A stretch of DNA of 64,000 bases from Gemmatimonadota bacterium (GCA_039586795.1 JBDHJS010000013.1:1-64000), one strand, 5' to 3'; positions 16,200 through 33,672 are shown, counted from the stretch's first letter. The notes: generated from the sequence alone by a model not told the origin. Made by a program: numbers and translations.

Positions 16200-18161
16200 C
16201 TAGCGACCCGTTTCGGCTGTGGCGTAGTCCAGATCGAAGGTCGATACGATCAGATAATGGTCAGAGGGAAAACCAGCCGGCCATGTCGATACGATCCGCG
16301 TCGACGTGTTTGTGAGTCCTGCGCCCTTGTAGTAAAACTGGTCGATCCTGTTGCCGCTTCGGTGAGTATGCCCTGGATAGACCGCGACGTCAGGGTGTAG
16401 GCTTCGGAATGCGTCCGTAAATCCGGTGTTCAACAGCGCCAGCGAGGCCGGACTGTCTCCGTTATCCGTATGCGGGACCGCATTGAAGTCGCCGGCAAAC
16501 AAGACCGGAATGCTATCCGACTCCAGGAACCGGGTCTGGTGAAACTCGAACACCGCCGGGAACTGCCGCATGCCGTACCAGTTCGACATCACGTACATGT
16601 CCTGTGTCTCGCTGATCGCTACCTTCGCCGCGAGGTTCATGAACGGTGATTCATCCTGGACATATATCTCTTTGATCGGATAACGACTCAGCACGGAGAT
16701 GTTGGATCCCTGGTTTAGGTAATCCCAGTCAACCGTCGTCGCGAAGTAGAAGCCCAATTCCGCGGCGATGAAGTCGCCTGAAGAATACGTCTCCTGCATC
16801 ATCACTACGTCTGCGCCTTCCCTGCGGAGAATCTCGGCAATCGCGACCCTCGAATCCCAGCCGTGCTCATCTATGGAAAAGTGCTTACCGCCATGCCAGA
16901 TGTTCCAGCAGCCTGCCGTTATTGAGGTGAGCTCCCGTCCGAGTTTGGCTACAGCGGGAACGAAGTGTTCAGAATAGGCTTCCAGCACTTCCTGAGGTGA
17001 GAGCGCACGATCCCATATCGCCAGGTTGTCCATGTCAAACTCGGGCGCGTACAACCTCTCAGCTTCCCCAAATCCTCCTGCGGCGCTCCGATTCACGGTC
17101 ACCTTACCATCCTCGAGAGCGTAGATCTTCATCAGCGGTGCGACTGCCATGAAGTACAACACCTGATGCACCGTGTACGGATTGGACATCAGTGCGTCTT
17201 CCAGTTGCTCGATCGGTTCCCAATCCACCGAATCCATGGCTTCACGAAACTCGAGGCTGTCTGCGCCGAGACGTTGGATCCTTTCAGTCACCTTTTGATC
17301 GAACAAGCGACGGGGATCGACGACCAGATGAACGAACTCATCAGAGTCGATTTCATCCAGGCCAAGCCCATTGAAGGCGTCAACCAGTGCCTGCAGCTGT
17401 ACCGCACCCGTTTCAACGAGCGGGAGAACTGCCGGTTGTGGGCCGGCAGCCGCCCCATCCCACCCAACCACCATCGGATTCGGGTTCCGGAAGTCAAAGC
17501 CATCCGAGTCGCGCACGTTGTATGTAACCTTGTTGTCCCCGTCATAGAACAGACGGATTGTCGACTGTGCGCTGCTGTAGGTCATCGTCAGCTGATGCCA
17601 CCGGCCATCGTTCAGCGGCATATACTTGCCGTTGTCCCGTTCGTAGGTGATTCGCCGCTCCCCGGAACCCAGGTTCCACGCCCAGGTGCCACCCGAGAAG
17701 TAGAACACCCACCCGGGCCGTTTTTGGGAGGCGAGGCTGTTGTCGACAAACTCCTTCTGCGACAGCAGCACAAACCTCCTGTCATCATCCGTCACGGTTC
17801 TCAACCAGAACTGAACGGAGAAGTCCCGGCTGCCATCGAACGGAAGTTCTTGGTTGTCGAAGGTCAGGAATCCCGACTGATCATCATCCCCCAGACTAAG
17901 CGCCAGCCCGTCGAGGCCCCGCCCGAAAGAAACGGGCCCACCAACGATCTCCAAAGGTGAAGTGCCAGTAGCACTGCTCACCGTACCGTCAAAATCAAAT
18001 TGGACGACTGCATCTGATTCGGACTGTGGCTCGGCGGCTTGCATCGTCGCGCCCATTTGGGGAACAACGAGCGAACTTGCGTATAGGTGGAACGACTTGA
18101 CCGCCAAAAGATGGAAGCCACCAGAGAATAGGAGCGCTACTGTCAGTGTCTTACGGCCCAT
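16200..18161 (-). CDS. LamG-like plus endonuclease/exonuclease/phosphatase (EEP) protein, probably secreted
   Basis: DFSVQFW, DGRWHQL, WDRALS (LamG); WNIWHG, MQET, GDFN, RID, SDH (EEP); start uncertain. Confidence 0.82.
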   Translation of the reverse strand: MGRKTLTVALLFSGGFHLLAVKSFHLYASSLVVPQMGATMQAAEPQSESDAVVQFDFDGTVSSATGTSPLEIVGGPVSFGRGLDGLALSLGDDDQSGFLTFDNQELPFDGSRDFSVQFWLRTVTDDDRRFVLLSQKEFVDNSLASQKRPGWVFYFSGGTWAWNLGSGERRITYERDNGKYMPLNDGRWHQLTMTYSSAQSTIRLFYDGDNKVTYNVRDSDGFDFRNPNPMVVGWDGAAAGPQPAVLPLVETGAVQLQALVDAFNGLGLDEIDSDEFVHLVVDPRRLFDQKVTERIQRLGADSLEFREAMDSVDWEPIEQLEDALMSNPYTVHQVLYFMAVAPLMKIYALEDGKVTVNRSAAGGFGEAERLYAPEFDMDNLAIWDRALSPQEVLEAYSEHFVPAVAKLGRELTSITAGCWNIWHGGKHFSIDEHGWDSRVAIAEILRREGADVVMMQETYSSGDFIAAELGFYFATTVDWDYLNQGSNISVLSRYPIKEIYVQDESPFMNLAAKVAISETQDMYVMSNWYGMRQFPAVFEFHQTRFLESDSIPVLFAGDFNAVPHTDNGDSPASLALLNTGFTDAFRSLHPDVAVYPGHTHRSGNRIDQFYYKGAGLTNTSTRIVSTWPAGFPSDHYLIVSTFDLDYATAETGR

Positions 18162-18345
18162 AACCTGGATCCTGGTTCCAAGAACTTTGATCAAACGAAC
18201 GAGGAGTGGTCCTGGGAACCTAGATCTCCGGATCCACTGGGCAACTCGAGTCGACACCGAGGGCATCGTCCTGCGGAAGTTGGACGCGGAGGCGATATCA
18301 CGAAGACCGCCTCCGCATCCCAAGGGCAAGCGCCTGGAGCAGCCT

Positions 18346-19941: not shown

Positions 19942-20766
19942 TCAGATAGCGACCCTAAACAGACCGCGAAGGGCGAACGCGGCGATCATGGTCAAGATGA
20001 AGAAGACGACGAGCCAGTGCGTCTCCCAACCGAATAAGCTCACCTCGGCTTCAGGATATCCGACCGCGATCGACTCGATTGGGCCAGGCGGAAGCGGCGG
20101 TTCGACGGGATAGAGTACCTGGCTGAGCAGCCCTCCGGATGGACGAACCACAGACCGTCGTACGACGGAGTTTGACACCTGCACGGACTTATCTAGCTCC
20201 GCGTCGCCCAGCCGGATGCTAAGCCGGTAGGTCCCCGGCCGCTGAGCACGGATGCGCCAGTCCGCTTCGTTGAGCGAGGGAATCCAGAGAAGCGGAGTCT
20301 CGACCGTGACGTCCGAGGGAGCATCGAGCTCGAGAGGCGGCGACTCTCCGGCCGTCCGGTCGGCATTCAACTTGACGGTGACGATCGCTTCGCTTCCCAC
20401 CTCCAGGCCCTGGTATCCGTAGCGGTACTGCAGCTGAACGATGACAAGCAGAAGAGGGATGCTCATCCAAAGCAACGGGACCAGCGTTAGCCGCATGTAG
20501 CGGAGGCTATGCCGGACGATCCCCATCTGGGCACTCAGCATGGTCCTCGGGTCGTCGCTAAAGAGCCGAATCTCGAAGATCCCGGCGTGCATCTGACGCT
20601 TGGCGGCAGCGAGCGCTTTCTGATCCGATGTGGCTTTGAAGATGAGGAGCACTGCAACTGCCGTGATGACGGACATCACAGTCAGGCCCACGACGGGCGG
20701 GAGATCGCGAAAGGGATAGAGCAGCACGTCGAACGTGCCGCTAACCAGAGCATTCAGGATACTCAT
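19942..20766 (-). CDS. Membrane protein resembling EMC3/TMCO1/DUF106 (Oxa1 superfamily), with an inserted beta domain
   Basis: Amphipathic helix, TM1, helical hairpin, TM2 (PLLWMSIPLLLV), beta-rich insert, TM3 (GWETHWLVVFFILTMIAAFALR). The CDS is solid; the family call is by eye. Confidence 0.6.
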   Translation of the reverse strand: MSILNALVSGTFDVLLYPFRDLPPVVGLTVMSVITAVAVLLIFKATSDQKALAAAKRQMHAGIFEIRLFSDDPRTMLSAQMGIVRHSLRYMRLTLVPLLWMSIPLLLVIVQLQYRYGYQGLEVGSEAIVTVKLNADRTAGESPPLELDAPSDVTVETPLLWIPSLNEADWRIRAQRPGTYRLSIRLGDAELDKSVQVSNSVVRRSVVRPSGGLLSQVLYPVEPPLPPGPIESIAVGYPEAEVSLFGWETHWLVVFFILTMIAAFALRGLFRVAI

Positions 20767-20785
20767 TCAGGCTATCCTCGGAACG

Positions 20786-20977
20786 TCAGGATATGTACCC
20801 CAATCCTTGGAGGCGCTTTCTGATCTCCTCCTCGGAGTCGGCCTCCTCGAGATGCGCCAGCTCCTTCTCTAGGGCGTGAGTGATGAACTCCTCGACCGAC
20901 GAGTATCCGGCTATGTCCGCGTAGCGCTTGACTCTCGTCAAGAGATTCTTGTCTAGCTTGACCTTCGACCCGAACAT
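20786..20977 (-). CDS. 63-aa ribbon-helix-helix (CopG-like) protein with C-terminal RLxxLGY tail
   Basis: AGGAGG RBS; beta-helix-GYSSVEEF-helix pattern; ends EEEIRKRLQGLGYIS. Confidence 0.8.
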   Translation of the reverse strand: MFGSKVKLDKNLLTRVKRYADIAGYSSVEEFITHALEKELAHLEEADSEEEIRKRLQGLGYIS

Positions 20978-20994
20978 CGTACTACCTCCTAGTC

Positions 20995-23010
20995 TTATCT
21001 ACTTTCCGCGGCAGGAGATTCATCTTCACGGGGGAAGCCCTCGATCCCAAACTCTGCGAGCACCGCCGCGGCCATTTCTCTAAGTGACTCAACCTCCAGG
21101 CGAAGCGGGCGGTTCGTGAACAGCACACCGGGCACTGCCTCATGGTCGATCTCATGGCCCGCGCTCCACTTGCTCACGTTGTCGTAGAACAATCCGTGGG
21201 GGATCCTTCCAACGGCCGACTCATCGGAGCTGCGAAACCCTGCGGCGTAACCAACGATCATGTCCGGACCGATTCCGCGATGTACGGTATCCCTGTAAAC
21301 GCGATCACGATGGTAGACTTTGGCTATGGCCGGCTCACCGGTCTGCGGATCGGTGACCCTTAAAAGACGTCTTGAGATCTCATCGATGATCAGGGTCCGC
21401 TGCTCTCGCGGCACGATGCCAAACCGTTCACGACCCCTCAGGTTGATGTACAGGCCGTTGAGACCCAAAGCATAGGCCTGGGTGCGCGACCAGTCGACGT
21501 TGGCAAAGAACTCCGACTCGCCCTGCCGCGACGGATCTTTGAGCACCAGGTAGCCGTTCTCCTCGAGCCACGTGTTCAGGTTGAACGCGCGCCGCCAGGA
21601 GACGAAGCCGTGGTCCGACATCACGATGAGCGTGGTGTTGTCATCGATGTGCTCCAATGTCTCGCCGACGATCTCGTCTGCCTCGATATAGAGGTCTACG
21701 ATCTCACCTCGATAAGGGCCATCAACGATGGGGTCGTGGGCGGGATGAGTAGAGTCCATGGCGCTCCACATCACATGCGAGACCATATCGAGATGCCCGA
21801 AGTAGTAGAAGAGCAATCCACCCTCGAAGCGCTCCAGAAGAAAGTCGTATTGTTTCCGATTCTCTGCGGCTACCATCGCGGCCTGGGCAAGAAACTCGTC
21901 ATCGTCGAAGACGCCTGCGGTGAGCGCCCGAGTGTCCTCCGCCATTCCCTGGGTGTAGTAGCGTCCGGTGGCCGATGCTAGCTCGGCCGCAAAGTCGGGA
22001 GGACTCGAGATGGGCATCGCCGGGTCCAGCGGGTCCAGGTTGATCGGCGTGACGTAAAGTTGAAACTCGGGCCGGACCTGCTTGAGGTAGAAACGGCACG
22101 TACCAACCAGGCTCTTCACAAAGATCATCAGCTCGTAGTCGACCGTCAGCCACTCGCTCCACTCGCCTTCCTGAAGAACGACCTCCTGTTCACCCAGTAC
22201 GATCTTGGCTACGGGCCTGGTGGGATCGATGTAGACCGTGAAGTCGGCTTCCAGGTTACTCGATTCGGCCAAAAAGGGATGCGCGGGACCTCGGAGGCTT
22301 CCGTTGAATACGTGATCGATGACTTCCGCTTCGTAGACGGCGCCGCCGCCGGCGATCGTCGCAGTTATCCGCTCCGGAGCGGTGGTGAAGAACGAGAACG
22401 TGCCATAGGTCCCCAGGATGTCCGGCGTACCCATTCCGCTCAGCTCGCGGCTGGCCGATCCGGATGGCGGAAAGTTGGCCGGCATGCGAACGATAGCGGT
22501 GGGGACACCGTGGTCCTCCAGCACCTCCCAAAACGGTGTGCCGTAGCGCAGCAGCTGAACGCCGCCGCCGGACAGCGGGAACTGCCAGCGGCCCAGCTTG
22601 ATGGTTCTGCCCGGCCCCTCCGTCCTCGAGGTCGACAGGTACGGTACCATCGTCGCCGGGTCCCGGTGCATGAAGTCGAATATGCCGTGGCCGCCCGCAT
22701 CGAGACCCGTGATGAATTCCGACCATGCCACCGGGCTCTGCGGAGGAATCGAGGTCCGCAGCGCTCCGAAGCGACCATCACGGGCGAGCTGCATCAGGTT
22801 GGGTAACCGACCCTCGGACATCAGCCGCTCGGTAAGACTGTAGTCCATCCCGTCGAAACCGAGCACGATCACGCGTTTCTCTACAACAGAGGCGTCGTTC
22901 CCACAGCTCGTGCTGGCAGCGAGAACGAAGAGCATCAGGAGGCCGACCGAACGGGCACTCGCCCACCGGCGGGGAGCCGAGATCAACTCGGGACCGTACC
23001 TGCTCTTCAC
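20995..23010 (-). CDS. Alkaline phosphatase superfamily (type I phosphodiesterase/NPP-like) lipoprotein, paralog B
   Basis: GFDG, TSIPPQSPVAW, DMVSH, SDHG, SAGH; lipobox-like STSC; GTG start in a GTGA overlap with a GGAGG RBS. Confidence 0.88.
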   Translation of the reverse strand: MKSRYGPELISAPRRWASARSVGLLMLFVLAASTSCGNDASVVEKRVIVLGFDGMDYSLTERLMSEGRLPNLMQLARDGRFGALRTSIPPQSPVAWSEFITGLDAGGHGIFDFMHRDPATMVPYLSTSRTEGPGRTIKLGRWQFPLSGGGVQLLRYGTPFWEVLEDHGVPTAIVRMPANFPPSGSASRELSGMGTPDILGTYGTFSFFTTAPERITATIAGGGAVYEAEVIDHVFNGSLRGPAHPFLAESSNLEADFTVYIDPTRPVAKIVLGEQEVVLQEGEWSEWLTVDYELMIFVKSLVGTCRFYLKQVRPEFQLYVTPINLDPLDPAMPISSPPDFAAELASATGRYYTQGMAEDTRALTAGVFDDDEFLAQAAMVAAENRKQYDFLLERFEGGLLFYYFGHLDMVSHVMWSAMDSTHPAHDPIVDGPYRGEIVDLYIEADEIVGETLEHIDDNTTLIVMSDHGFVSWRRAFNLNTWLEENGYLVLKDPSRQGESEFFANVDWSRTQAYALGLNGLYINLRGRERFGIVPREQRTLIIDEISRRLLRVTDPQTGEPAIAKVYHRDRVYRDTVHRGIGPDMIVGYAAGFRSSDESAVGRIPHGLFYDNVSKWSAGHEIDHEAVPGVLFTNRPLRLEVESLREMAAAVLAEFGIEGFPREDESPAAESR

Positions 23011-25148
23011 CGCGCACCCTCCGCTGAGGACGCAGAGGAAGCTCCGACCTTCCCTGTATCGTGAAATAGCGTGCTTCCATCCATGTATCCCGGCGGCTCG
23101 ACTCCGAACAGCCAGAGCGCGGTCGGCGCGATGTCGACCAACGCCGGGTCGGCTCGGTGGGTGGGCCGATTGCAGAACAAGACGCCCGGGACCAGGCGCG
23201 GATCGATACAATGATCTCCGCTCCAGGGCTTGCGATTGTCTTCGAAGATGGGACCCGCAATCACTCCTGTCGCTCCATCCCAAGAAGTCCGGTAGCCGGC
23301 GTTGTATCCCATCAACATGTCGGGCGCATCCTTCACGTACGGTCCTTTGTACAGCTCATCCGTCGCAAACACCTCGCGGATGGCGACGTCGCCAGTCTCC
23401 GCATCCACGAGGCCGCTGAGTTTGTCGATCAGTTCAGTCTTGAGCGACATGGCTGCGTCGCCCGGCTCCACAATCCCTTCAGCCTCTCGACCCTTCAGGT
23501 TGAGATAGAGACCGGTCAGACCCAGAGCGTAGGCCCGTGTCTTCGACCAGTCCACATCGCGAAGCCAGTCGGACCTTCCGTCGGTTCCGTCTTTGAGCGT
23601 GAGATAGCCGTTGGCGAGCAGCCAGCTGTTCAGGTTCACGCCGCGCCTAAACGAGCTGAAACCATGGTCGGACAACACCATGAGAACGTCACCGTCTTTC
23701 AACGCGCTCATGGCCCGTCCAACGATGGCATCGTTGTGTACGTAAAGCTTCTCTATAGCATCGCGATGTGCTGACTCGGTCTGCCCACCGTTGGCCGGGT
23801 GATCGGCTTCGAGGTAACGCCAGAACATGTGTTGGATCCGATCGGTGGCATCGAACACACAGGCCAGCATTCCCCGGCGCAGCTTATCCAGAGCGGTGAA
23901 GAACATCTCTTCCCGCTCCTTGTCTATATCGTAAGTGAGTTCAAGGAACGATTCGTCGCCGATGACGCCCTCGTTCAGGGCCCAGGTGTCCTCGGCGAGG
24001 CCCGTTGTAGCGTACTTGCCGAGCTTCTTCGCCAAATAGATGGCATAGTAATGCGGGTGCGAGATCGGCATCGCCGGCTTTTCGGGATCGATGTTGATCG
24101 GCGTCATGTAAAGCGAAAAATGCTCGCCCATCTCGGTGACCATCATCCGGCAGATCCCGCGTATCTTGACGCCCGGCGCAGCGCGGAAGCCAACGTTAAC
24201 CCAATCGCTCAGAACCCCGGTCTGTAGCACGAGCCGGGTCCCGTCGAGCGACAGTCGAACGAGGTTGGCGCCGCGGTCTAGTTCAATCTCGAGAGGTACC
24301 TCGAGCGGCGGATCACCATCGATGAAGGGGTTCGCCGGACCCTGCACGACCGTTGCGGCACGATCGCCGTTCATCTCGAGCTCCACCCGGGTGCCGCCCT
24401 CCTTGAAACGCGCTTCGGAACGCCGGGTGGTGTACAGCCTGAACGTGCCTTGTGTACCGAGAAGATCGGGCACCGACATGGCGCTCAGCTGGGCCCCATA
24501 AAAACGGTCCGGCGGGAACGTTATGGGCACTCGGAGGATCGTGCTCCATATGTTGCGTTCGCCAAGGATCGACCAGAAGGGTTTTGATTTTCTCAGCAGG
24601 CGCAGTTCCGGGCTTTTGAGAGGAACGCGGAAACGGCCCAATCTCAGAAATCGATCGACCTTGCCGACCCGCGTAGATGAGAGGATCGGAAGATAGGTCC
24701 GCCGATCGCGGTCGAGGAAGTCGAAGATGTTGTGCTTGGCCGGATGAGTTCCAGTGCTGAACGAGGACCAAGCCACAGGCGACACCGACGGATAGGTCGT
24801 GGCGAGTCGGTGATAGCATCCCATCTCGGCGAGGCGCCGGAAGTTGGGCAGCTTTCCCTCTTCCAAGAAACGATCGGTGAGTTTCGGATCCTGGCCGTCG
24901 AAACCGAGCACGATCAGCCGTTTGATCCTCGGGCGTGCCCGGCGTACGCGGCGGAGCGCGCGCCACACCATGCGAAACGGCCAAAGAAGCATCGAGACAA
25001 CGGCCATGAGGCCCGTCACGAATACGACCAGAAACGAGGTGACGAAGACGAAGCCGGCGCCCGGACCGACATAGGCGGCCGCCGGGCTGGGCGTGGCGAG
25101 CAGCAGCACCAGAGCGAGGGTTGCCGCTGCCAGACAGCGGCGCTTCAG
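23007..25148 (-). CDS. Alkaline phosphatase superfamily (type I phosphodiesterase/NPP-like) membrane-anchored protein, paralog A
   Basis: GFDG, TTYPSVSPVAW, DRIQH, SDHG, SGDH; signal peptide AAA/YVGPGAG then a TM helix. Start uncertain (CTG 25148 or TTG 25187). Confidence 0.85.
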   Translation of the reverse strand: MKRRCLAAATLALVLLLATPSPAAAYVGPGAGFVFVTSFLVVFVTGLMAVVSMLLWPFRMVWRALRRVRRARPRIKRLIVLGFDGQDPKLTDRFLEEGKLPNFRRLAEMGCYHRLATTYPSVSPVAWSSFSTGTHPAKHNIFDFLDRDRRTYLPILSSTRVGKVDRFLRLGRFRVPLKSPELRLLRKSKPFWSILGERNIWSTILRVPITFPPDRFYGAQLSAMSVPDLLGTQGTFRLYTTRRSEARFKEGGTRVELEMNGDRAATVVQGPANPFIDGDPPLEVPLEIELDRGANLVRLSLDGTRLVLQTGVLSDWVNVGFRAAPGVKIRGICRMMVTEMGEHFSLYMTPINIDPEKPAMPISHPHYYAIYLAKKLGKYATTGLAEDTWALNEGVIGDESFLELTYDIDKEREEMFFTALDKLRRGMLACVFDATDRIQHMFWRYLEADHPANGGQTESAHRDAIEKLYVHNDAIVGRAMSALKDGDVLMVLSDHGFSSFRRGVNLNSWLLANGYLTLKDGTDGRSDWLRDVDWSKTRAYALGLTGLYLNLKGREAEGIVEPGDAAMSLKTELIDKLSGLVDAETGDVAIREVFATDELYKGPYVKDAPDMLMGYNAGYRTSWDGATGVIAGPIFEDNRKPWSGDHCIDPRLVPGVLFCNRPTHRADPALVDIAPTALWLFGVEPPGYMDGSTLFHDTGKVGASSASSAEGAR

Positions 25149-25202
25149 CTTATCTTCTACCGCTGACCGGCTATGCGACCCTGCCAACCAGAGAGCGTTA
25201 TC

Positions 25203-25814
25203 GTGGCCTCTTCGCTCCTTCGATTCTTCAGGCGTGTTAGATACGGAAAGCCGATCATCGTCGTTTCCGGCCTCCCACGCTCCGGCACGTCGCTGATGAT
25301 GCAGATGCTCGAAGCCGGCGGGATAGAGATCGTGACCGATCGCGTCAGGACAGCCGATGAGAGCAATCCTCAAGGGTATTACGAGTTGGAGGCGGTCAAG
25401 GAGCTCGATAAAGGGACCCACCCGTTCTGGCTCAAAGATGCCAGAGGTAAAGCAGTCAAGATCATCGCGTTTCTCATAAACTACCTGCCGGAGACCTTCA
25501 GCTACAAGGTCATTTTCATGCATCGAGACATAGACGAAGTGCTCGCCTCCCAGACCAAGATGCTAGCACTGCGCGGCGAGCCCTCAGACACCGACGACGC
25601 ACGCATGCGTGAACTCTTCGAGGGTCACCTCGCCAGGACCAAGCGTCTGCTCACAAGCCGTGCTTGTTTCGAGGTCCTCGACATCAGCTACAATGAGATC
25701 CTCGAAAACGCCTCCGAGCATGCGGGGCGCGTCGATCGCTTCTTAGATGCGCAGCTCGACGTCGAACGCATGGCCGCGGTCGTGAACCCCGATTTGTACC
25801 GGAGCCGTCGCTGA
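25203..25814 (+). CDS. PAPS-dependent sulfotransferase family protein
   Basis: GLPRSGTS 5'-PSB loop, NPQGYYE, MHRD..EVLAS; likely GTG start at 25203. Confidence 0.85.
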   Translation: MASSLLRFFRRVRYGKPIIVVSGLPRSGTSLMMQMLEAGGIEIVTDRVRTADESNPQGYYELEAVKELDKGTHPFWLKDARGKAVKIIAFLINYLPETFSYKVIFMHRDIDEVLASQTKMLALRGEPSDTDDARMRELFEGHLARTKRLLTSRACFEVLDISYNEILENASEHAGRVDRFLDAQLDVERMAAVVNPDLYRSRR

Positions 25815-25817
25815 TCT

Positions 25818-28247
25818 TCACTGAATGTATCCCAACGACCGCAGTGTCTCGAGTTGCGCGGGCGTTAGACTCACCTCACCACCTGGCGTGAAGAGCTGCG
25901 CCAATACCTGGTGCGCCTCGAACTGCGCCTCGAGGAACTCGGTGTACCTCTCCACCAGGTCGGGCCGCTCCTCGTGCAGGCTGTGCCAGCAATCGGGATC
26001 GTTCCACAGGTCGCAGATCAGCAGTGGCGCGGGTCGGCCCTCCGGACGAATGCGGGGACGAGGCGCCGGAGGATGCCCGATAAGCAGCGACGCTCCCCAG
26101 CGGCCGTCGATCACCTCGATGAAACCGCTGAGCTCACCGGTCTGCGGGTCCGCGTAAAACTGGTCCAAGATCACCGGCCGAGGTTCCCAGCCTTCCTCGC
26201 CCAGAAGCAAGGGCGCCAGCGACTGGCCCTGCATGACCTCGGGCATCGGCAGTCCGGCGAGGTCCAGGATCGTGGGCAACATGTCGATCATCGACACCGG
26301 CTGTCTGAAGCGCTGGCCACCCGCGATGCGATCCGGCCACACGATGATCAGCGGAATACGGCTCACCGAGCTTCTCAATATCGGGCCCCAGTGAGGCGAG
26401 AACGGGTCGCGGAGGAGCGCGGACCATTGGCTATGATCGGAGGCGACGACGAGCACCGTGTGCTCCCACTCGCCTGCGGCCTTCAGCCGTTCCACCAGTT
26501 GCCCAATCTGGTGATCCTGGTGCGCCATCGTCTCGTCGTAGAGGCGGCGTCGGGCTTCGAAGTACGCGATCGGACTGATGCCGGTCTCAGCGAAGGCAGT
26601 TGAGTCCGGGTCGGCGGCCCACCAGACGCCGCCTGTCTCTTGTAGCTGGCGCTCCCACGCGTAGTAGCGCTCCCGCAACTCGGGACTGATGAAGAGGCCG
26701 GCGAAGGGCGTCGCCGGTCTCCACGGCCAGTGCACGTCGGTGGTCTGGAAGTGCACCCAGTAGGGCTCAGCTGGGTAAGTCTCGCGCCATCTCCAGAAGG
26801 ACCCGTGAAGGAAGACCGAGGAAACCGAATTGTTGTCGCTCCGGAACCAGGGCAATCCCGACCAGCTTTCACGCAGGGCATCAACCCCTCGATGGAGGCT
26901 GCTCATCATGCCGGCAAAAGGGTTGGCGGTGAACACCGCCGTCTGGTAGCCGTCCGCATGTAGGTATTGGGCCATCGTCACTGCCTGTTCGGGCAGCGGA
27001 TCGGCGTTGGTCCTGTAACCACCCAGCACGCTGTGCTGCAGTGAGGTCATGAACGAAGGCGTCGAGACCTTTGTCCAGCTGGAATTGCTGTAGGCATGCT
27101 CGAACACCGCTCCTTCGGCTGCCAGACGCTCCAGGTTCGGAGTCGTTCGACGGTTGTATCCGTAGACGCTCATGAGATCCGCCGCAGCGCCGTCGATGAT
27201 GTAGAAGACGACGTTGGGCTTGTCAGTGGTTCGCGCGCCGCTGAGAGTCGGTGCGGCCCAAAGGGCCACGGTGCCGGCGCGCTCCGCGTCTGCCTCCAGT
27301 GTCAGCGTCACAGTCTGTCCCGCCAGGTGGGACAGATCCACCGAGCGCTGCGCCCAGCGGTTCGGGTCGGCATAGGTCTCCGCCAACAGGGTCTCGGCCT
27401 CGCGACCTTTCCGCTGCGCGGTGATCGCGAACGTCACCGGCGCATTGCCCCGCAGCACCCCCAGGCCGAGATCGAGGCGTCCTGCTTCGGGCACCTTCAC
27501 CTGGTAGTCGAGCCGCCCTGGCGTATGGGTGTAGAGGGTCCGACGATGGGCATTGTCGCGCTCCTCCATCCGCAACCCGGCGCGACTCCCCGCGAACTCG
27601 GCCTCCCGCGCTATCACACGCACCGACAGAATGTCGAGCGTCACTTCTTCCACGTCCGGCTGGCTGTTGAACCAGATAGCCAGCTGGGTCCAGGTCCCTT
27701 CCCACCTCCCAACTCTGGGCGCGTCTAGAGACAGCCGGTACGTCTGGACCGTGCCATCGGTCACGAGGCGCGACCACTCACCGCGGCTCTGAAAAGGGAG
27801 GACGCCAAGCACCGGGTCTTCTTCAGTGTAGTTGAATCCCAAGCCTATGGCGTTCATCCGATCGCGCGTGCGGGCGCGAATCTCTACGTACGCCCAGTCC
27901 TCCAGCGCCCAGTCCGGCAGATCGACATAGATGGCGCCGATCAAGCGGGGGCCGTCGGCACGGTGTTCTGCGGTTAGGGGCAGAGCCAGAGCGTCGTCAG
28001 TTTGAACAGGCTCGACGGACCCCAACTGTGCCCCGATCGGTCTGGCTGGCCTCCAGTCCGGCTGCGGTTCATCGAAGCGCCAAGCCACCTGGGGAATGCC
28101 CGCGGGAACTTCGGAGCCCACGACGGTGGCGGCGGCGAGATGGTCTTCAAGGTGCAGAGGCCGCTGAGCCCGTAGCACCGGAGAGCCGGCGTCGCCGCAT
28201 CCCCCTATGAGGATCAAGCCAAGGAACAGTACTCTAAAGCGGAACAT
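25818..28247 (-). CDS. Sulfatase-like hydrolase/transferase lipoprotein (Thr nucleophile, no FGly motif)
   Basis: Lipobox IGGC; KPNVV..ID, YGYNRRTTPNL, SWTKVS, DVH, SDH; ends LRSLGYIQ. Confidence 0.88.
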   Translation of the reverse strand: MFRFRVLFLGLILIGGCGDAGSPVLRAQRPLHLEDHLAAATVVGSEVPAGIPQVAWRFDEPQPDWRPARPIGAQLGSVEPVQTDDALALPLTAEHRADGPRLIGAIYVDLPDWALEDWAYVEIRARTRDRMNAIGLGFNYTEEDPVLGVLPFQSRGEWSRLVTDGTVQTYRLSLDAPRVGRWEGTWTQLAIWFNSQPDVEEVTLDILSVRVIAREAEFAGSRAGLRMEERDNAHRRTLYTHTPGRLDYQVKVPEAGRLDLGLGVLRGNAPVTFAITAQRKGREAETLLAETYADPNRWAQRSVDLSHLAGQTVTLTLEADAERAGTVALWAAPTLSGARTTDKPNVVFYIIDGAAADLMSVYGYNRRTTPNLERLAAEGAVFEHAYSNSSWTKVSTPSFMTSLQHSVLGGYRTNADPLPEQAVTMAQYLHADGYQTAVFTANPFAGMMSSLHRGVDALRESWSGLPWFRSDNNSVSSVFLHGSFWRWRETYPAEPYWVHFQTTDVHWPWRPATPFAGLFISPELRERYYAWERQLQETGGVWWAADPDSTAFAETGISPIAYFEARRRLYDETMAHQDHQIGQLVERLKAAGEWEHTVLVVASDHSQWSALLRDPFSPHWGPILRSSVSRIPLIIVWPDRIAGGQRFRQPVSMIDMLPTILDLAGLPMPEVMQGQSLAPLLLGEEGWEPRPVILDQFYADPQTGELSGFIEVIDGRWGASLLIGHPPAPRPRIRPEGRPAPLLICDLWNDPDCWHSLHEERPDLVERYTEFLEAQFEAHQVLAQLFTPGGEVSLTPAQLETLRSLGYIQ

Positions 28248-28254
28248 TGCCACC

Positions 28255-29772
28255 TCACCCCATGAACAAGTTCTTCGTAGCGAAGTCCGGATCGCTCGTG
28301 AGATTCACGCCGAGCTTCCTAAGTCCGGCCTCATCGCCGGGCGTCGGCATGTGGGTCATGTGAACTTCGCAACCGCGCAGCTCCCTGAGTCCTTCCAGGG
28401 CGGCCTTGGCAGACGGGTTCGACGCGGTGCTCACGGCGAGGGCGATGAGTGCCTCTTCGGCGTCGAGGCTAACGCGTTTGCCGCTCAACACCTCCGTCTT
28501 CAGGTGCCCCAACGATTCGATGACCGACGCAGGCAAAAGGTGCTCGTCCTCGGATATGCCGGCGAGCCGCTTCGCCGCGTTTAACACGAGGCCGGCCGCC
28601 GCGTGCATCAACGGAGAGTTGCAGCCGGTCACCACCGACCCGTCCGGTAGCTCAACGGCTGCGCCGCAGTAGATACCGTCGTTGCCCCTGCCCGTGTGCT
28701 TGGCGCGCTGCGCTGCATCGCGCGCCGGTCCCACGACCTGACGGCTTTCAGGGCTTATCCCGAGATCGTTCATGAGCAGCTCGATCCGCTGCACCGAGTC
28801 GCGATCGACGAGCCCCATGGCGTGTTCGCACGCGTACCGGAAGTACCGGCGCACCACTTCCCCCTTGGCCGCTTCCTGCACGGCTACATCGTCCACGATC
28901 CCGAAACTCGCCCGGTTCACGCCCATGTCGGTGGGTGAGCGGTAGAACGAGTCTCCGCCGGTGATCCGCTCGAGAATTCGTCTGAGCAACGGGAACGCGT
29001 CGATGTCACGGTTGTAGTTCACCGCCCGCTCGTCGTGCGCCTCTAAGTGAAAGTGATCGAGCTGGTTCACGTCCTTGAGCTCGGCGGTCGCCGCCTCGTA
29101 GGCCACGTTCACCGGGTGCTTGAGCGGCAGATTCCAGATGGGGAACGTCTCGAACTTGGCGTAACCCGAGGCCAACCCGCGGTGGTGATCGTGGTACAGC
29201 TGGGATAGGCAGGTGGCGAGCTTCCCGCTACCGGGCCCGGGGCCAGTCACCACGACGATCGGCTTGTCCGTCTCGATGTACGAGTTGGCGCCATAGCCCC
29301 TGTCGCTCACGATGACGTCCACGTCGGTGGGATACCCGCGCGTGAACCCATGCGTGTAGACGCGGATACCGCGGTTCTCGAGCCGCTGCTTGAACGCGGC
29401 GGCCGCGGGCTGCTCCTCGTACCGGGTGATCACCACGGCACGAACGTGGACACCCCATTCCCCGAGGTCATCAATCAACTTGAGCGCGTCGGCGTCGTAC
29501 GTTATGCCGAAGTCGGCCCGCATCTTCTTCTTCTCGATGTCTCCGGCATAGATGCAGAGGATCACCTCGGCGCGGTCGTTGAGCCCCTGGAGCAACTTGA
29601 TCTTCACGTTTGGGTCGAACCCCGGAAGCACGCGGGCGGCGTGGTAGTCGAACAGCAGCTTGCCGCCGAACTCCAGGTAGAGCTTGTCGCCGAACCGGGC
29701 GACGCGCTCGTTGATCGCGGCTCTCTGTTGCTCGAGGTACTTCTCGTTGTCGAACCCAGCCCGCAGCTGCAT
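28255..29772 (-). CDS. DUF1846 / UPF0371 protein
   Basis: GFDNEKY, KLYLEFGGKL..D.HAARVLPG, GPGSGKLATCLSQLYH, YAKFETFPIWN, SPTDMGVN. Confidence 0.92.
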   Translation of the reverse strand: MQLRAGFDNEKYLEQQRAAINERVARFGDKLYLEFGGKLLFDYHAARVLPGFDPNVKIKLLQGLNDRAEVILCIYAGDIEKKKMRADFGITYDADALKLIDDLGEWGVHVRAVVITRYEEQPAAAAFKQRLENRGIRVYTHGFTRGYPTDVDVIVSDRGYGANSYIETDKPIVVVTGPGPGSGKLATCLSQLYHDHHRGLASGYAKFETFPIWNLPLKHPVNVAYEAATAELKDVNQLDHFHLEAHDERAVNYNRDIDAFPLLRRILERITGGDSFYRSPTDMGVNRASFGIVDDVAVQEAAKGEVVRRYFRYACEHAMGLVDRDSVQRIELLMNDLGISPESRQVVGPARDAAQRAKHTGRGNDGIYCGAAVELPDGSVVTGCNSPLMHAAAGLVLNAAKRLAGISEDEHLLPASVIESLGHLKTEVLSGKRVSLDAEEALIALAVSTASNPSAKAALEGLRELRGCEVHMTHMPTPGDEAGLRKLGVNLTSDPDFATKNLFMG

Positions 29773-31556: not shown

Positions 31557-31603
31557 AATGGGCCTGGGTGGACTCGAACCACTGACCTCACGCTTATCAG
31601 GCG
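31557..31603 (-). repeat. att-like duplicate of the tRNA-Ile 3' half
   Basis: 46/47 identical to 33597-33643; lacks the tRNA 5' half. Confidence 0.92.
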
Positions 31604-31906
31604 CGGCGGATCCCCCCCCAAAGCCCGACACCATACCGGAACTCCAGAGCAGACTGCGCGATTTGTCCGACATCGCTCACCTGATTCCGACCTGAGTCCG
31701 GAATCAATCGACACCACAATCGACGCCATGCGCGATCAGCCTGAAGGTGTTCGGCGTATTCGATTTCCCGGCCGTTGGCTGCAAGGGATGCGATGCACAA
31801 TCGCAGGAACCTTGCAGCTCAAGGAGTGGTTGGCTAGCGCAGAAGGGACCTCTTGCTCGGCGAGGTACTGATCCTCAGAAACCAACGGAAAGTGAGGTGT
31901 TGATAT

Positions 31907-33352
31907 ATGACCAGACGACTTCGACTTGTCCTGGTAATGGTCTCCGGCTGTCTTGTTCTGGGCCCACAACCGGCCATGGGGCAGGACAAGCCAAATATCG
32001 TCCTCGTGTTCATGGACAACTTTGGATGGGGCGAGCCGGGGTTTAACGGAGGCGGTGTCACGCGAGGTGCGGCGACGCCGCGCCTCGACAGACTGGCCGA
32101 TGAGGGACTTCGCTTGACTAACTTTAACGTCGAAGTGCAATGCACACCCTCTCGGTCGGCGCTGATGACGGGCCGTTACGCGATTCGCAGCGGGAACGCC
32201 ACGGTCCCCCTCGGCGAGGGTGTCTACGGCCTGGTGCAGTGGGAAGTGACGATGGCCGAAATGCTGTCTGAGGCAGGGTACGCGACAGGCATGTTCGGAA
32301 AGTGGCATCTCGGGCGGACCGAGGGCCGTTTTCCTACTGACCAGGGATTCGACGAATGGTATGGAGTACCGAACTCGACCGATGAGGCTGTCTATTCTTC
32401 ATTGCCCGGCTTTTCCGAGAGCGGCGTCGCCGAAACGTACGTGATGGACGCGCGGAAGGGCGGGGCACCGACCAAAGTGCGCCCCTACAACCTGGACTAC
32501 CGTCCGCTGATCGATCGCGACCTAACCGACAGGGCAGTTGATTTCATGCGGCGTCAGGTTGAAGCCGGTAAGCCGTTCTTCCTGTACCTGCCCTATACCG
32601 CGACGCACTTCCCGACGCTTCCGCATCCCGACTTCGTGGGGCGTTCAGGTAACGGTTTGTGGGCCGACCTGCTCATGCAGATCGACAGTTACACCGGCGA
32701 GTTACTGGATGCGATTGACGAACTGAGCGTTGCAGAGAACACCATCTTCGTCTTTACCGCGGACAATGGGCCAGAAGCTTCAGACTTCGAGAGCACGAAC
32801 CTGACCGTCGAGACGGCGGTCCACGGGTCGGCCGGTCCATGGCGGGGCACGCTCTTCACGGGGTTCGAAGGTGCGCTACGTGTCCCGTTTGTGGTTCGCT
32901 GGCCGGGGCGTATTGCCGCCGGCGGCTCCAGCGACGAGATCGTCCACGCCATGGATCTCTTTCCGACCTTCGCAACCATAGCGGGAGGCACCGTACCAGA
33001 CGATCGTCCTATCGACGGCCAGGACATGACCGCCTTTCTCTTCGGTGATGAGGAGAAGTCAGGTCGCGAGGGCTTCGTCGTCTACATGGGCACCGAGATC
33101 TTCGGCGTGAAGTGGCGTAACTGGAAGCTGCACTTCAAGGAGCAGGACGCGTGGTCGGATGAACTGCGCACCTACACGATGCCCCGCGTGTACAACCTCC
33201 TGAGCGATCCCCAGGAGCGTGACAACGTGATCTTTCCAAACACCTGGGTGCCCAAGGCGGCGCTCGGCCAACTGGAAGACCACGTCGCATCGCTGAAGGC
33301 GTATCCACCGATCCCCTCTGGCGCGCCGGATCCGTATGAACCGCCGAAGTGA
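31907..33352 (+). CDS. Secreted formylglycine-dependent arylsulfatase (family S1)
   Basis: Signal peptide, KPNIV, CTPSRSALMTGRY, GKWHLG, ADNG. Confidence 0.95.
   Translation: MTRRLRLVLVMVSGCLVLGPQPAMGQDKPNIVLVFMDNFGWGEPGFNGGGVTRGAATPRLDRLADEGLRLTNFNVEVQCTPSRSALMTGRYAIRSGNATVPLGEGVYGLVQWEVTMAEMLSEAGYATGMFGKWHLGRTEGRFPTDQGFDEWYGVPNSTDEAVYSSLPGFSESGVAETYVMDARKGGAPTKVRPYNLDYRPLIDRDLTDRAVDFMRRQVEAGKPFFLYLPYTATHFPTLPHPDFVGRSGNGLWADLLMQIDSYTGELLDAIDELSVAENTIFVFTADNGPEASDFESTNLTVETAVHGSAGPWRGTLFTGFEGALRVPFVVRWPGRIAAGGSSDEIVHAMDLFPTFATIAGGTVPDDRPIDGQDMTAFLFGDEEKSGREGFVVYMGTEIFGVKWRNWKLHFKEQDAWSDELRTYTMPRVYNLLSDPQERDNVIFPNTWVPKAALGQLEDHVASLKAYPPIPSGAPDPYEPPK

Positions 33353-33598: not shown

Positions 33599-33672
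<74 letters not shown>

Follow-up and report, generated by a model that had tools for sequence, protein, structure and literature searches.

A conserved gene cassette with an invariant membrane tyrosine, a candidate bacterial route for exporting sulfo groups

3'-Phosphoadenosine 5'-phosphosulfate (PAPS) is cytoplasmic, and we found no published route by which bacteria deliver activated sulfate to the periplasm. Here we consider six genes that may belong to such a route. They lie in a stretch of 64,000 nucleotides from a Gemmatimonadota bacterium (GCA_039586795.1, JBDHJS010000013.1:1-64000), the whole of which we call the window, and encode a sulfotransferase (ST), two paralogous enzymes of the alkaline phosphatase (AP) superfamily (A and B), a mini-protein (mini), a membrane protein (M), and a sulfatase-like lipoprotein (SL). 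We consider it probable that such loci export a sulfo group carried on tyrosine, in one order of steps or another, and we lean slightly toward one exact order, in which all genes but SL take the group from PAPS across the inner membrane.

In their logic the closest described systems are the MBOAT-SGNH tyrosine shuttles, such as DltB/DltX/DltD. The acyl shuttles PatA/PatB and OatA are of the same kind (PMC12148441). According to the accessible part of that source, a group from a cytoplasmic donor crosses on an invariant tyrosine of a membrane peptide and is then taken up by a serine of an outer enzyme, and some systems carry the peptide as a fused segment, others as a separate micro-protein; the cassette would resemble them in both respects. 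Unlike the cassette, for which we propose a sulfo group and an N-terminal tyrosine, they move acyl groups by way of a C-terminal or loop tyrosine, and Pfam and NCBIfam scans found no MBOAT, AT3, or SGNH family among the six genes. A two-step logic with an aryl sulfate intermediate, which our locus may share, is known from the caprazamycin pair Cpz8/Cpz4, where the phenolic sulfate formed by a PAPS sulfotransferase serves in turn as donor to a second transferase that does not depend on PAPS (PMC4257720). The second enzyme of that type is an arylsulfate sulfotransferase (ASST), as it is in the stand-alone sister system described below; the genome of the window has none, and the caprazamycin intermediate is a diffusible pyrone for which the accessible part of the paper implies no membrane crossing.

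For SL the comparison is with Agl30 and Agl31 of Halobacterium salinarum, sulfatase-fold proteins of the AP superfamily that, by deletion and heterologous expression, sulfate the N-glycan (PMC11980604, from the part of the paper accessible to us). From the primers given there, they end in LGYL and LGYT, respectively; VNG1063H also ends in LGY, and SL joins the same fold to a C-terminal LGY. This tail is a criterion of our choosing and not of that paper's authors, and the likeness is drawn from fold and tail; Agl31 is soluble and Agl30 membrane-associated, unlike the lipoprotein SL. M shares an N-terminal core of transmembrane (TM) helix, hairpin, and TM helix with MJ0480/Ylp1 and with EMC3, TMCO1, and GET1 of the Oxa1 superfamily, but is bacterial, has an immunoglobulin (Ig)-like outer domain, and is tied to one tyrosine helix rather than to general biogenesis. 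A and B share their two-metal motifs with the Xanthomonas NPP and phosphonoacetate hydrolase (PDB 2gsn and 1ei6), and in the PDB comparison their serine aligns with the NPP threonine, which we take to be the catalytic nucleophile; the match reaches only E 3e-4, however, and A and B are proteins of ~630 aa with large insertions that form their own clade and are predicted on opposite membrane faces. The preliminary description of this locus knew of no characterised pathway of such composition, and we likewise found no description of the system in the open-access literature, subscription journals being mostly outside this coverage. The cassette is real, widespread, and undescribed within the literature covered.

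In other genomes the genes do stay together. In the best 80 genome loci out of 578 relatives retrieved with A, B is present in 77, ST in 70, mini in 68, M in 66, and SL in 21; when only loci with enough contig are counted, B, mini, and M are found together in 61 of 62, and ST in 66 of 71. Thus, of the six-gene set put forward in the preliminary description, ST, A, B, mini, and M stand as a conserved core, whereas SL was ruled out as a core member, and we treat the unit as five genes plus variable clients. Metagenome loci retrieved with M (n=80) have an identical gene order, with mini in 76. The closest named relatives are Gemmatimonadota, and across 121 genomes of this phylum M, ST, and a full mini all occur in the same 2 genomes (seven more gave weak mini matches at E<=0.05, for the most part confined to the tail). 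Among 141 genomes of the phylum Acidobacteriota, M occurs in 43 and the tyrosine helix of A in 42, all 42 in common, with neither in 98. Related genomes in these phylum counts are non-independent, and the unpublished genomes within them (G574 in the 43 and the 42, G508 among the 23 ASST genomes below, and G052 in the 121) are in no case the sole basis. One short tyrosine-helix open reading frame (ORF) that was tried as a new architecture (G637, L226:10683-11522) is A truncated to 279 aa in a normal cassette, with B and M still present.

A and B are 40% identical, pass the Phosphodiest cut-off (100.5 and 115.6 bits, respectively, against 23), and have a Ser nucleophile and intact two-metal motifs (GxDG, DxxxH, SDHG, and a distal His); phmmer of A against the PDB gave no match at E<=0.01. 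A quick tree, with long-branch warnings on its tailed outgroups, puts them within a clade of long enzymes without an LGY tail (support 99). The catalytic site of A is the most conserved part of the cassette. Ahead of it, homologues of A have an AxA-like site (73 of 74), the motif Y[IV]GPGAG (76 of 76), one hydrophobic helix, and then a stretch of net charge +4 to +11 that leads into the catalytic domain; the spacing is fixed at 55 residues in 73 of 74. A positively charged flank of a TM helix marks its cytoplasmic side, so the catalytic domain of A is predicted to be cytoplasmic and the tyrosine to be the mature N-terminus, on the outer face; in agreement with this, two ST-A fusion proteins (P0017 and P0066) retain Y[IV]GPGAG. 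B, with a lipobox-like motif in 55 of 66 homologues, is predicted to be periplasmic. The sidedness of A, B, and M was read from motifs and hydropathy. The preliminary description had correctly paired A and B as AP-superfamily enzymes, but had overlooked their opposite sidedness and the N-terminal tyrosine of A.

This tyrosine also occurs by itself. A search with the first 52 mature residues of A against short proteins gave 79 matches, many of them fragments of A and about two dozen apparently complete. Twenty-three aligned micro-proteins share invariant Y, G, P, G, and G and one later P, the N-terminal tyrosine being the sole invariant polar residue. In 401 genomes of the phylum Pseudomonadota there were 17 matches, 14 strong (13 stand-alone and 1 fused to A) and the remainder weak. 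Taking all 13 stand-alone genome loci with 2 of 3 plasmid matches, the micro-protein adjoins a PAPS-type sulfotransferase and an ASST in 15 of 15 (one ASST is 4.3 kb off), its tyrosine stands directly behind the cleavage site in 15 of 15, and a membrane gene lies between micro-protein and sulfotransferase. The ASST family PF14269 is above cut-off in 13 of 13 stand-alone genome loci; the sulfotransferases passed PF13469 in 5 of 5 checked, the others being assigned by BLAST. PF14269 occurs in 23 of the 401 genomes, among them all 14 with a strong match (Fisher p 3e-20, inflated by kinship). ASSTs take aryl sulfates as donors and tyrosine peptides as acceptors, as the accessible part of one review has it (PMC13426309), so that a membrane tyrosine between a PAPS enzyme and an outer ASST would most simply be an aryl-sulfate carrier.

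An M-like gene is present in 5 of these 15 loci; three match the M profile directly, and HHalign links a profile of the five members to M (97.6%, E 2.6e-12). The short three-TM proteins of the other 10 were tried twice as M relatives, with no link. Over the 401 genomes the M profile gave 3 matches, including a partial one in G289 (E 1e-4), and this search is insensitive, since it missed two M-like genes seen locally. The genome of the window (G000, 97.8% complete) has no PF14269 match, so B and SL may fill the ASST slot there. A tblastn search for ASSTs in cassette loci found none, but it too is insensitive, since Pfam places two ASST-family genes right upstream of the full cassette in one genome (G125:C22:13779-16201). 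Related micro-proteins with AYAY[IL]DPGTG behind a signal peptide stand beside other envelope-type genes in L204, L206, and L207 (by eye, genes resembling a methyltransferase and a nucleotidyltransferase, and one for a membrane protein), and may form a sister family of carriers for other groups.

It is ST that points to sulfo transfer. It carries the PRSGTS loop recognised in the preliminary description, exceeds the PF13469 (Sulfotransfer_3) cut-off, and has SGLPRSGTS, R96, and S104 invariant in 40 sequences, the last two presumably being the Arg and Ser that bind the 3'-phosphate. Its top PDB matches are to TPST2 (E 3e-4), nearly confined to the 5'-phosphosulfate-binding loop. By a motif test, 76 of the 120 best longer ST homologues (out of 1183) are AP-TPR-ST fusions. 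Other fusions join ST to A (the two above), M (P0045), adenosine 5'-phosphosulfate (APS) kinase (P0078 and P0086), and a sulfatase-like domain (P0114), and those with APS kinase and the sulfatase-like domain end in LGY. Further fusion partners of the family are methyltransferases and proteins that JGI names ADP-heptose:LPS heptosyltransferase (P0003-P0008 and P0015-P0020). Of the 80 genome loci, 22 have PAPS-synthesis genes and 16 have CysQ-like genes, and contig C50 of G000 has a fused ATP sulfurylase-APS kinase (Sat-CysC) beside a CysQ-like gene.

Phospho transfer by A and B, for example, of phosphoglycerol or phosphoethanolamine, with ST at the locus for another reason, would be in keeping with several observations: the closest solved relatives of A and B are NPP phosphodiesterases, SL weakly matches the EptA, LtaS, and YejM models (far under cut-off), sulfur-free variant loci exist, and the Y[IL]DPGTG micro-proteins have other envelope genes as neighbours. 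We nevertheless regard it as very unlikely and favour sulfo transfer, given the fusions of ST to A, M, and APS kinase, the PAPS genes beside 22 of 80 loci, and the pairing of the tyrosine helix with ASST in the sister system; in addition, ST, M, and mini share the same 2 of 121 genomes. The relay of a sulfo group from the cytoplasm to an extracytoplasmic acceptor, as the preliminary description envisaged it, agrees with all the tests that we ran (co-occurrence, ST fusions, PAPS genes, and the ASST sister system).

Mini and SL share a C-terminal tyrosine motif. The LGY tail is present in 66 of 66 mini homologues, and L..LGY ends just 7 of 88,484 stop-to-stop ORFs of G000, namely mini, SL, two SL paralogues, and three unrelated ORFs. 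Among the 16 sulfatase-fold ORFs of this genome, the tail is found in 3 of 3 of SL type and in 0 of 13 others, 10 of which have the formylglycine (FGly) motif; 120 true sulfatases had no tail either, a weak control because the sequences are 78-100% identical. A tail-less SL profile gave 150 relatives, of which 24 were dropped as incomplete; the remaining 126 comprise 103 with a Tyr tail, 22 with none, and one spurious His match, with Phe or Trp in 0. In the AP-TPR-ST fusions, L..LGY follows directly behind the AP domain in 72 of 76, and the other 4 keep [LM]GY. SL itself ends in LRSLGYIQ (Tyr809 codon at 25827-25829). Two tandem SL paralogues with LGY tails, 51-53% identical (G000:C83:4852-9871, L085), are likely to be further clients; a paralogue (59%) of the true sulfatase found in the window lies on that contig as well. 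Sat-CysC enzymes that adjoin the cassette in L005, L028, L030, L059, L060, L137, and L146 also end in L..LGY, and the LGY arm may derive from the C-terminal helix of APS kinase.

Automatic annotation calls mini CopG-like. Its similarity to ribbon-helix-helix (RHH) proteins is weak (NikR, E 0.98; an atlas lead at 0.86, with RHH_1 on 27% of members), but taken with the insertase homology of M it allows a conventional interpretation: A and B as ordinary phosphodiesterases or sulfatases, mini as their autoregulating repressor, and M as the insertase of A. This we consider highly improbable, the least credible of the alternatives. No 6- or 7-mer is enriched beyond shuffles as an operator in 59 ST-A intergenic regions, no FGly motif is present, and a dedicated insertase for one helix, together with an invariant terminal tyrosine, would be left unexplained.

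A more serious contender, though still unlikely in our view, retains the membrane-tyrosine export and changes the wiring, so that ST sulfates the N-terminal tyrosine of A directly, LGY is an unmodified docking helix, and the catalytic domain of A and mini have a side role (carrier reset, removal of 3'-phosphoadenosine 5'-phosphate (PAP), or scaffold). The stand-alone system makes do with ST, a membrane protein, the tyrosine helix, and ASST; ST is found fused to M or to a small membrane domain; and LGY ends APS kinases. Such wiring fits poorly with an LGY tyrosine that Phe or Trp replaces in none of 103 tails and 76 fusions, with an active site of A that is the best-conserved part of the cassette, and with the tailed neighbour found in 9 of 9 loci opened for tail-less long relatives of A and B.

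For M, the profile matches MJ0480 (PDB 5c8j) at E 2.3e-10 over positions 10-121, the TM-hairpin-TM core, and the AF2 model (pLDDT 94.8) has helices and an Ig-like domain, in the order TM, helical hairpin, TM, Ig-like outer domain, TM. M and mini fall in no Pfam or NCBIfam family (one M homologue reaches PF01956 at E 0.003, below cut-off), and Foldseek on the M model returned Ig-like matches alone, none at E<=0.001. At the level of sequence profiles, M matches as a homologue of the archaeal Oxa1-family protein MJ0480 and is predicted to be Oxa1/DUF106-like. Its pairing with the tyrosine (42 genomes in common) and the 76 of 76 invariance of the latter appear to support the relay proposed below.

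A lipid or small aromatic carrier, which A would load, M scramble, and B unload while the tyrosine motifs are structural, is suggested by the description of YidC as a lipid scramblase (PMC11997395, in its accessible part) and by variant loci that swap M for an LPG_synthase_TM protein or for UbiA and a polyprenyl synthase. It seems to us quite unlikely, since no carrier-making gene recurs near the cassette and the ASST-adjacent micro-protein, with its N-terminal tyrosine as the sole invariant polar residue, would remain unexplained. The variant loci were seen around long relatives of A and B, which occur without ST, M, or mini in 15 further genomes of the window's phylum. In L182 and L187 (G006 and G009), a secreted long enzyme is accompanied by a cytoplasmic tailed AP enzyme and a tailed membrane sulfatase-like gene, and a flippase-like LPG_synthase_TM gene stands where M would. 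L183 and L186 (G014 and G005) hold a Tat-exported long enzyme amid UbiA, polyprenyl synthase, radical SAM, and a membrane AP protein, which carries an LGY motif at either end in G014; these two look like a lipid pathway. In L179-L181, L184, and L185 (G098, G093, G021, G089, and G058), the long A/B-type enzyme is cytoplasmic and has a Thr nucleophile, and its tailed neighbour is an AP enzyme of 487 aa (4 of 5) or else an APS kinase; these loci also hold membrane-anchored tail-less sulfatase-like genes and, in 3 of 5, PAPS genes, and no ST of the cassette family was found in these five genomes.

Drawing on the observed genes, motifs, co-occurrence, fusions, and donor-synthesis genes, and on a predicted topology, we propose the following relay. 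Sat-CysC, encoded elsewhere in the genome, would make PAPS and CysQ would remove PAP (both genes were seen, and we assume the activities from their families). ST would then sulfate Tyr61 in the LGY tail of mini, and cytoplasmic A would pick up the group on its Ser and load its own mature N-terminal Tyr. An Oxa1-type groove in M may let the Tyr-Gly-Pro-Gly tail reach both membrane faces, which is the step for which we would claim least. On the periplasmic side, B would reverse the reaction of A, from membrane Tyr to its own Ser and on to the LGY tail of a client, and SL, if it acts as Agl30 and Agl31 do, would move the group from its tail Tyr via Thr to an envelope acceptor, most likely a glycan. 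A reaction run backwards by B would explain why A and B are paralogues, why they lack a tail, and why each has a tailed partner on its own side. The order is drawn chiefly from this symmetry, with a tail-less paralogue on each face, a tailed partner on each side, and one tyrosine helix between.

It is important to set against this relay a number of points that tell the other way. Every transfer in it is inferred from sequence and genomic context. The mature N-terminal tyrosine is expected on the outer face, away from the cytoplasmic site of A; we know of no Oxa1-family protein that moves a tail to and fro between membrane faces; serine O-sulfate is chemically sluggish; and the two-metal NPP site of A and B is typical of phosphodiesterases. 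ST is missing from 5 of 71 loci that have room for it, and the tail from 22 of 126 SL relatives. Some APS kinases and Sat-CysC enzymes end in L..LGY and yet need no shuttle, so that LGY may be a docking helix. The sulfotransferase of the stand-alone loci would load a membrane tyrosine without A or mini, which leaves the need of the cassette for both unexplained, and 10 of those 15 loci use a three-helix protein of 120-135 aa or an ST-fused domain that HHalign links to M at only 0.3%. In the five ST-less variants the long enzyme may use PAPS directly, and the retrieved stretches of G005 and G014 hold no sulfur gene. Glycosyltransferases, moreover, are absent from the recurrent neighbours of the cassette.

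More broadly, and with somewhat less confidence than in the relay itself, we tentatively suggest a widespread modular sulfo-export machine built on a membrane-anchored N-terminal tyrosine. PAPS would supply the sulfo group to this tyrosine, and an Oxa1-family protein, turned into a gate for group transfer, would let it swing across; at the outer end would stand either an ASST, which would thereby have its natural donor, or an NPP-type enzyme charging the LGY arms of a very large class of misannotated sulfatase-like transferases, Agl30 and Agl31 among them. What most PAPS-independent aryl sulfotransferases do physiologically is poorly understood, according to the accessible part of the review cited above (PMC13426309); the model, if true, would name a protein donor for one ASST subfamily. 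Similarly, it would have many LGY-tailed "sulfatase-like" proteins re-read as sulfotransferases, suggest a sulfate supply route for Agl30 and Agl31, place an Oxa1-family protein in a role beyond protein biogenesis, and concern ~30% of the sampled Acidobacteriota genomes (43/141). A three-gene operon on plasmids of the cultured marine and soil bacteria Tateyamaria omphalii and Paracoccus saliphilus makes it testable.

Table 1. Genes and modules of the cassette and its client in the window, by position on the forward strand
Feature	Description	Position	Strand	Remarks
M	274-aa membrane protein, predicted Oxa1/DUF106-like	19942..20766	-	MJ0480 profile match, AF2 model
Mini	63-aa RHH-like protein, predicted cytoplasmic, C-terminal GLGY	20786..20977	-	Tyr61 codon 20795-20797; RHH weakly supported
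B	671-aa NPP-type AP-superfamily enzyme, predicted periplasmic lipoprotein (Cys36), nucleophile Ser92, without LGY tail	20995..23010	-	PF01663 E 5e-33
A	Paralogue of B; signal peptide, Tyr-tail, one TM, basic cluster, predicted cytoplasmic Ser-nucleophile domain	23007..25148	-	
Putative Tyr carrier module of A	YVGPGAG right behind AxA site, TM helix, basic cluster	24918..25073	-	Tyr codon 25071-25073
ST	PAPS-dependent sulfotransferase, cytoplasmic	25203..25814	+	PF13469 E 2e-11
SL	811-aa sulfatase-fold lipoprotein, Thr nucleophile (SWTKVS), predicted client	25818..28253	-	PF00884 E 7e-36

All six ORFs lie where the preliminary description had placed them, with the same spacing and motifs (Table 1). 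A and B overlap by GTGA, the B stop is 17 bp from the mini start and the mini stop 19 bp from the M start, and ST and SL converge, stop facing stop, with 3 bp between. The divergent gap of ~55 bp between ST and A is reproduced when A is taken to start at CTG 25148 and ST at GTG 25203; there is no ATG near the signal peptide of A, and the in-frame candidates are TTG 25187 and CTG 25148. It also proves correct that C/S-x-P-x-R is absent from the catalytic position of A, B, and SL (the sole match in B is in the signal peptide, at residue 11), whereas the sulfatase at 31907 has CTPSR. SL has an alternative ATG start at 28247, and a DUF1846 gene (28255-29772) stops 1 bp ahead of its GTG, so that the two may be co-transcribed.

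Left of the cassette, positions 16200-18329 encode a LamG and endonuclease/exonuclease/phosphatase protein at lower GC (0.57 vs ~0.63). The sulfatase at 31907 was ruled out as a member of the system by its FGly motif, its lack of a tail, and its presence in 3 of 80 loci. Its gene is flanked by two copies of tRNA-Ile(GAT), one of them shorter (31559-31626 and 33599-33672), and this region is possibly an island with a duplicated attachment site.

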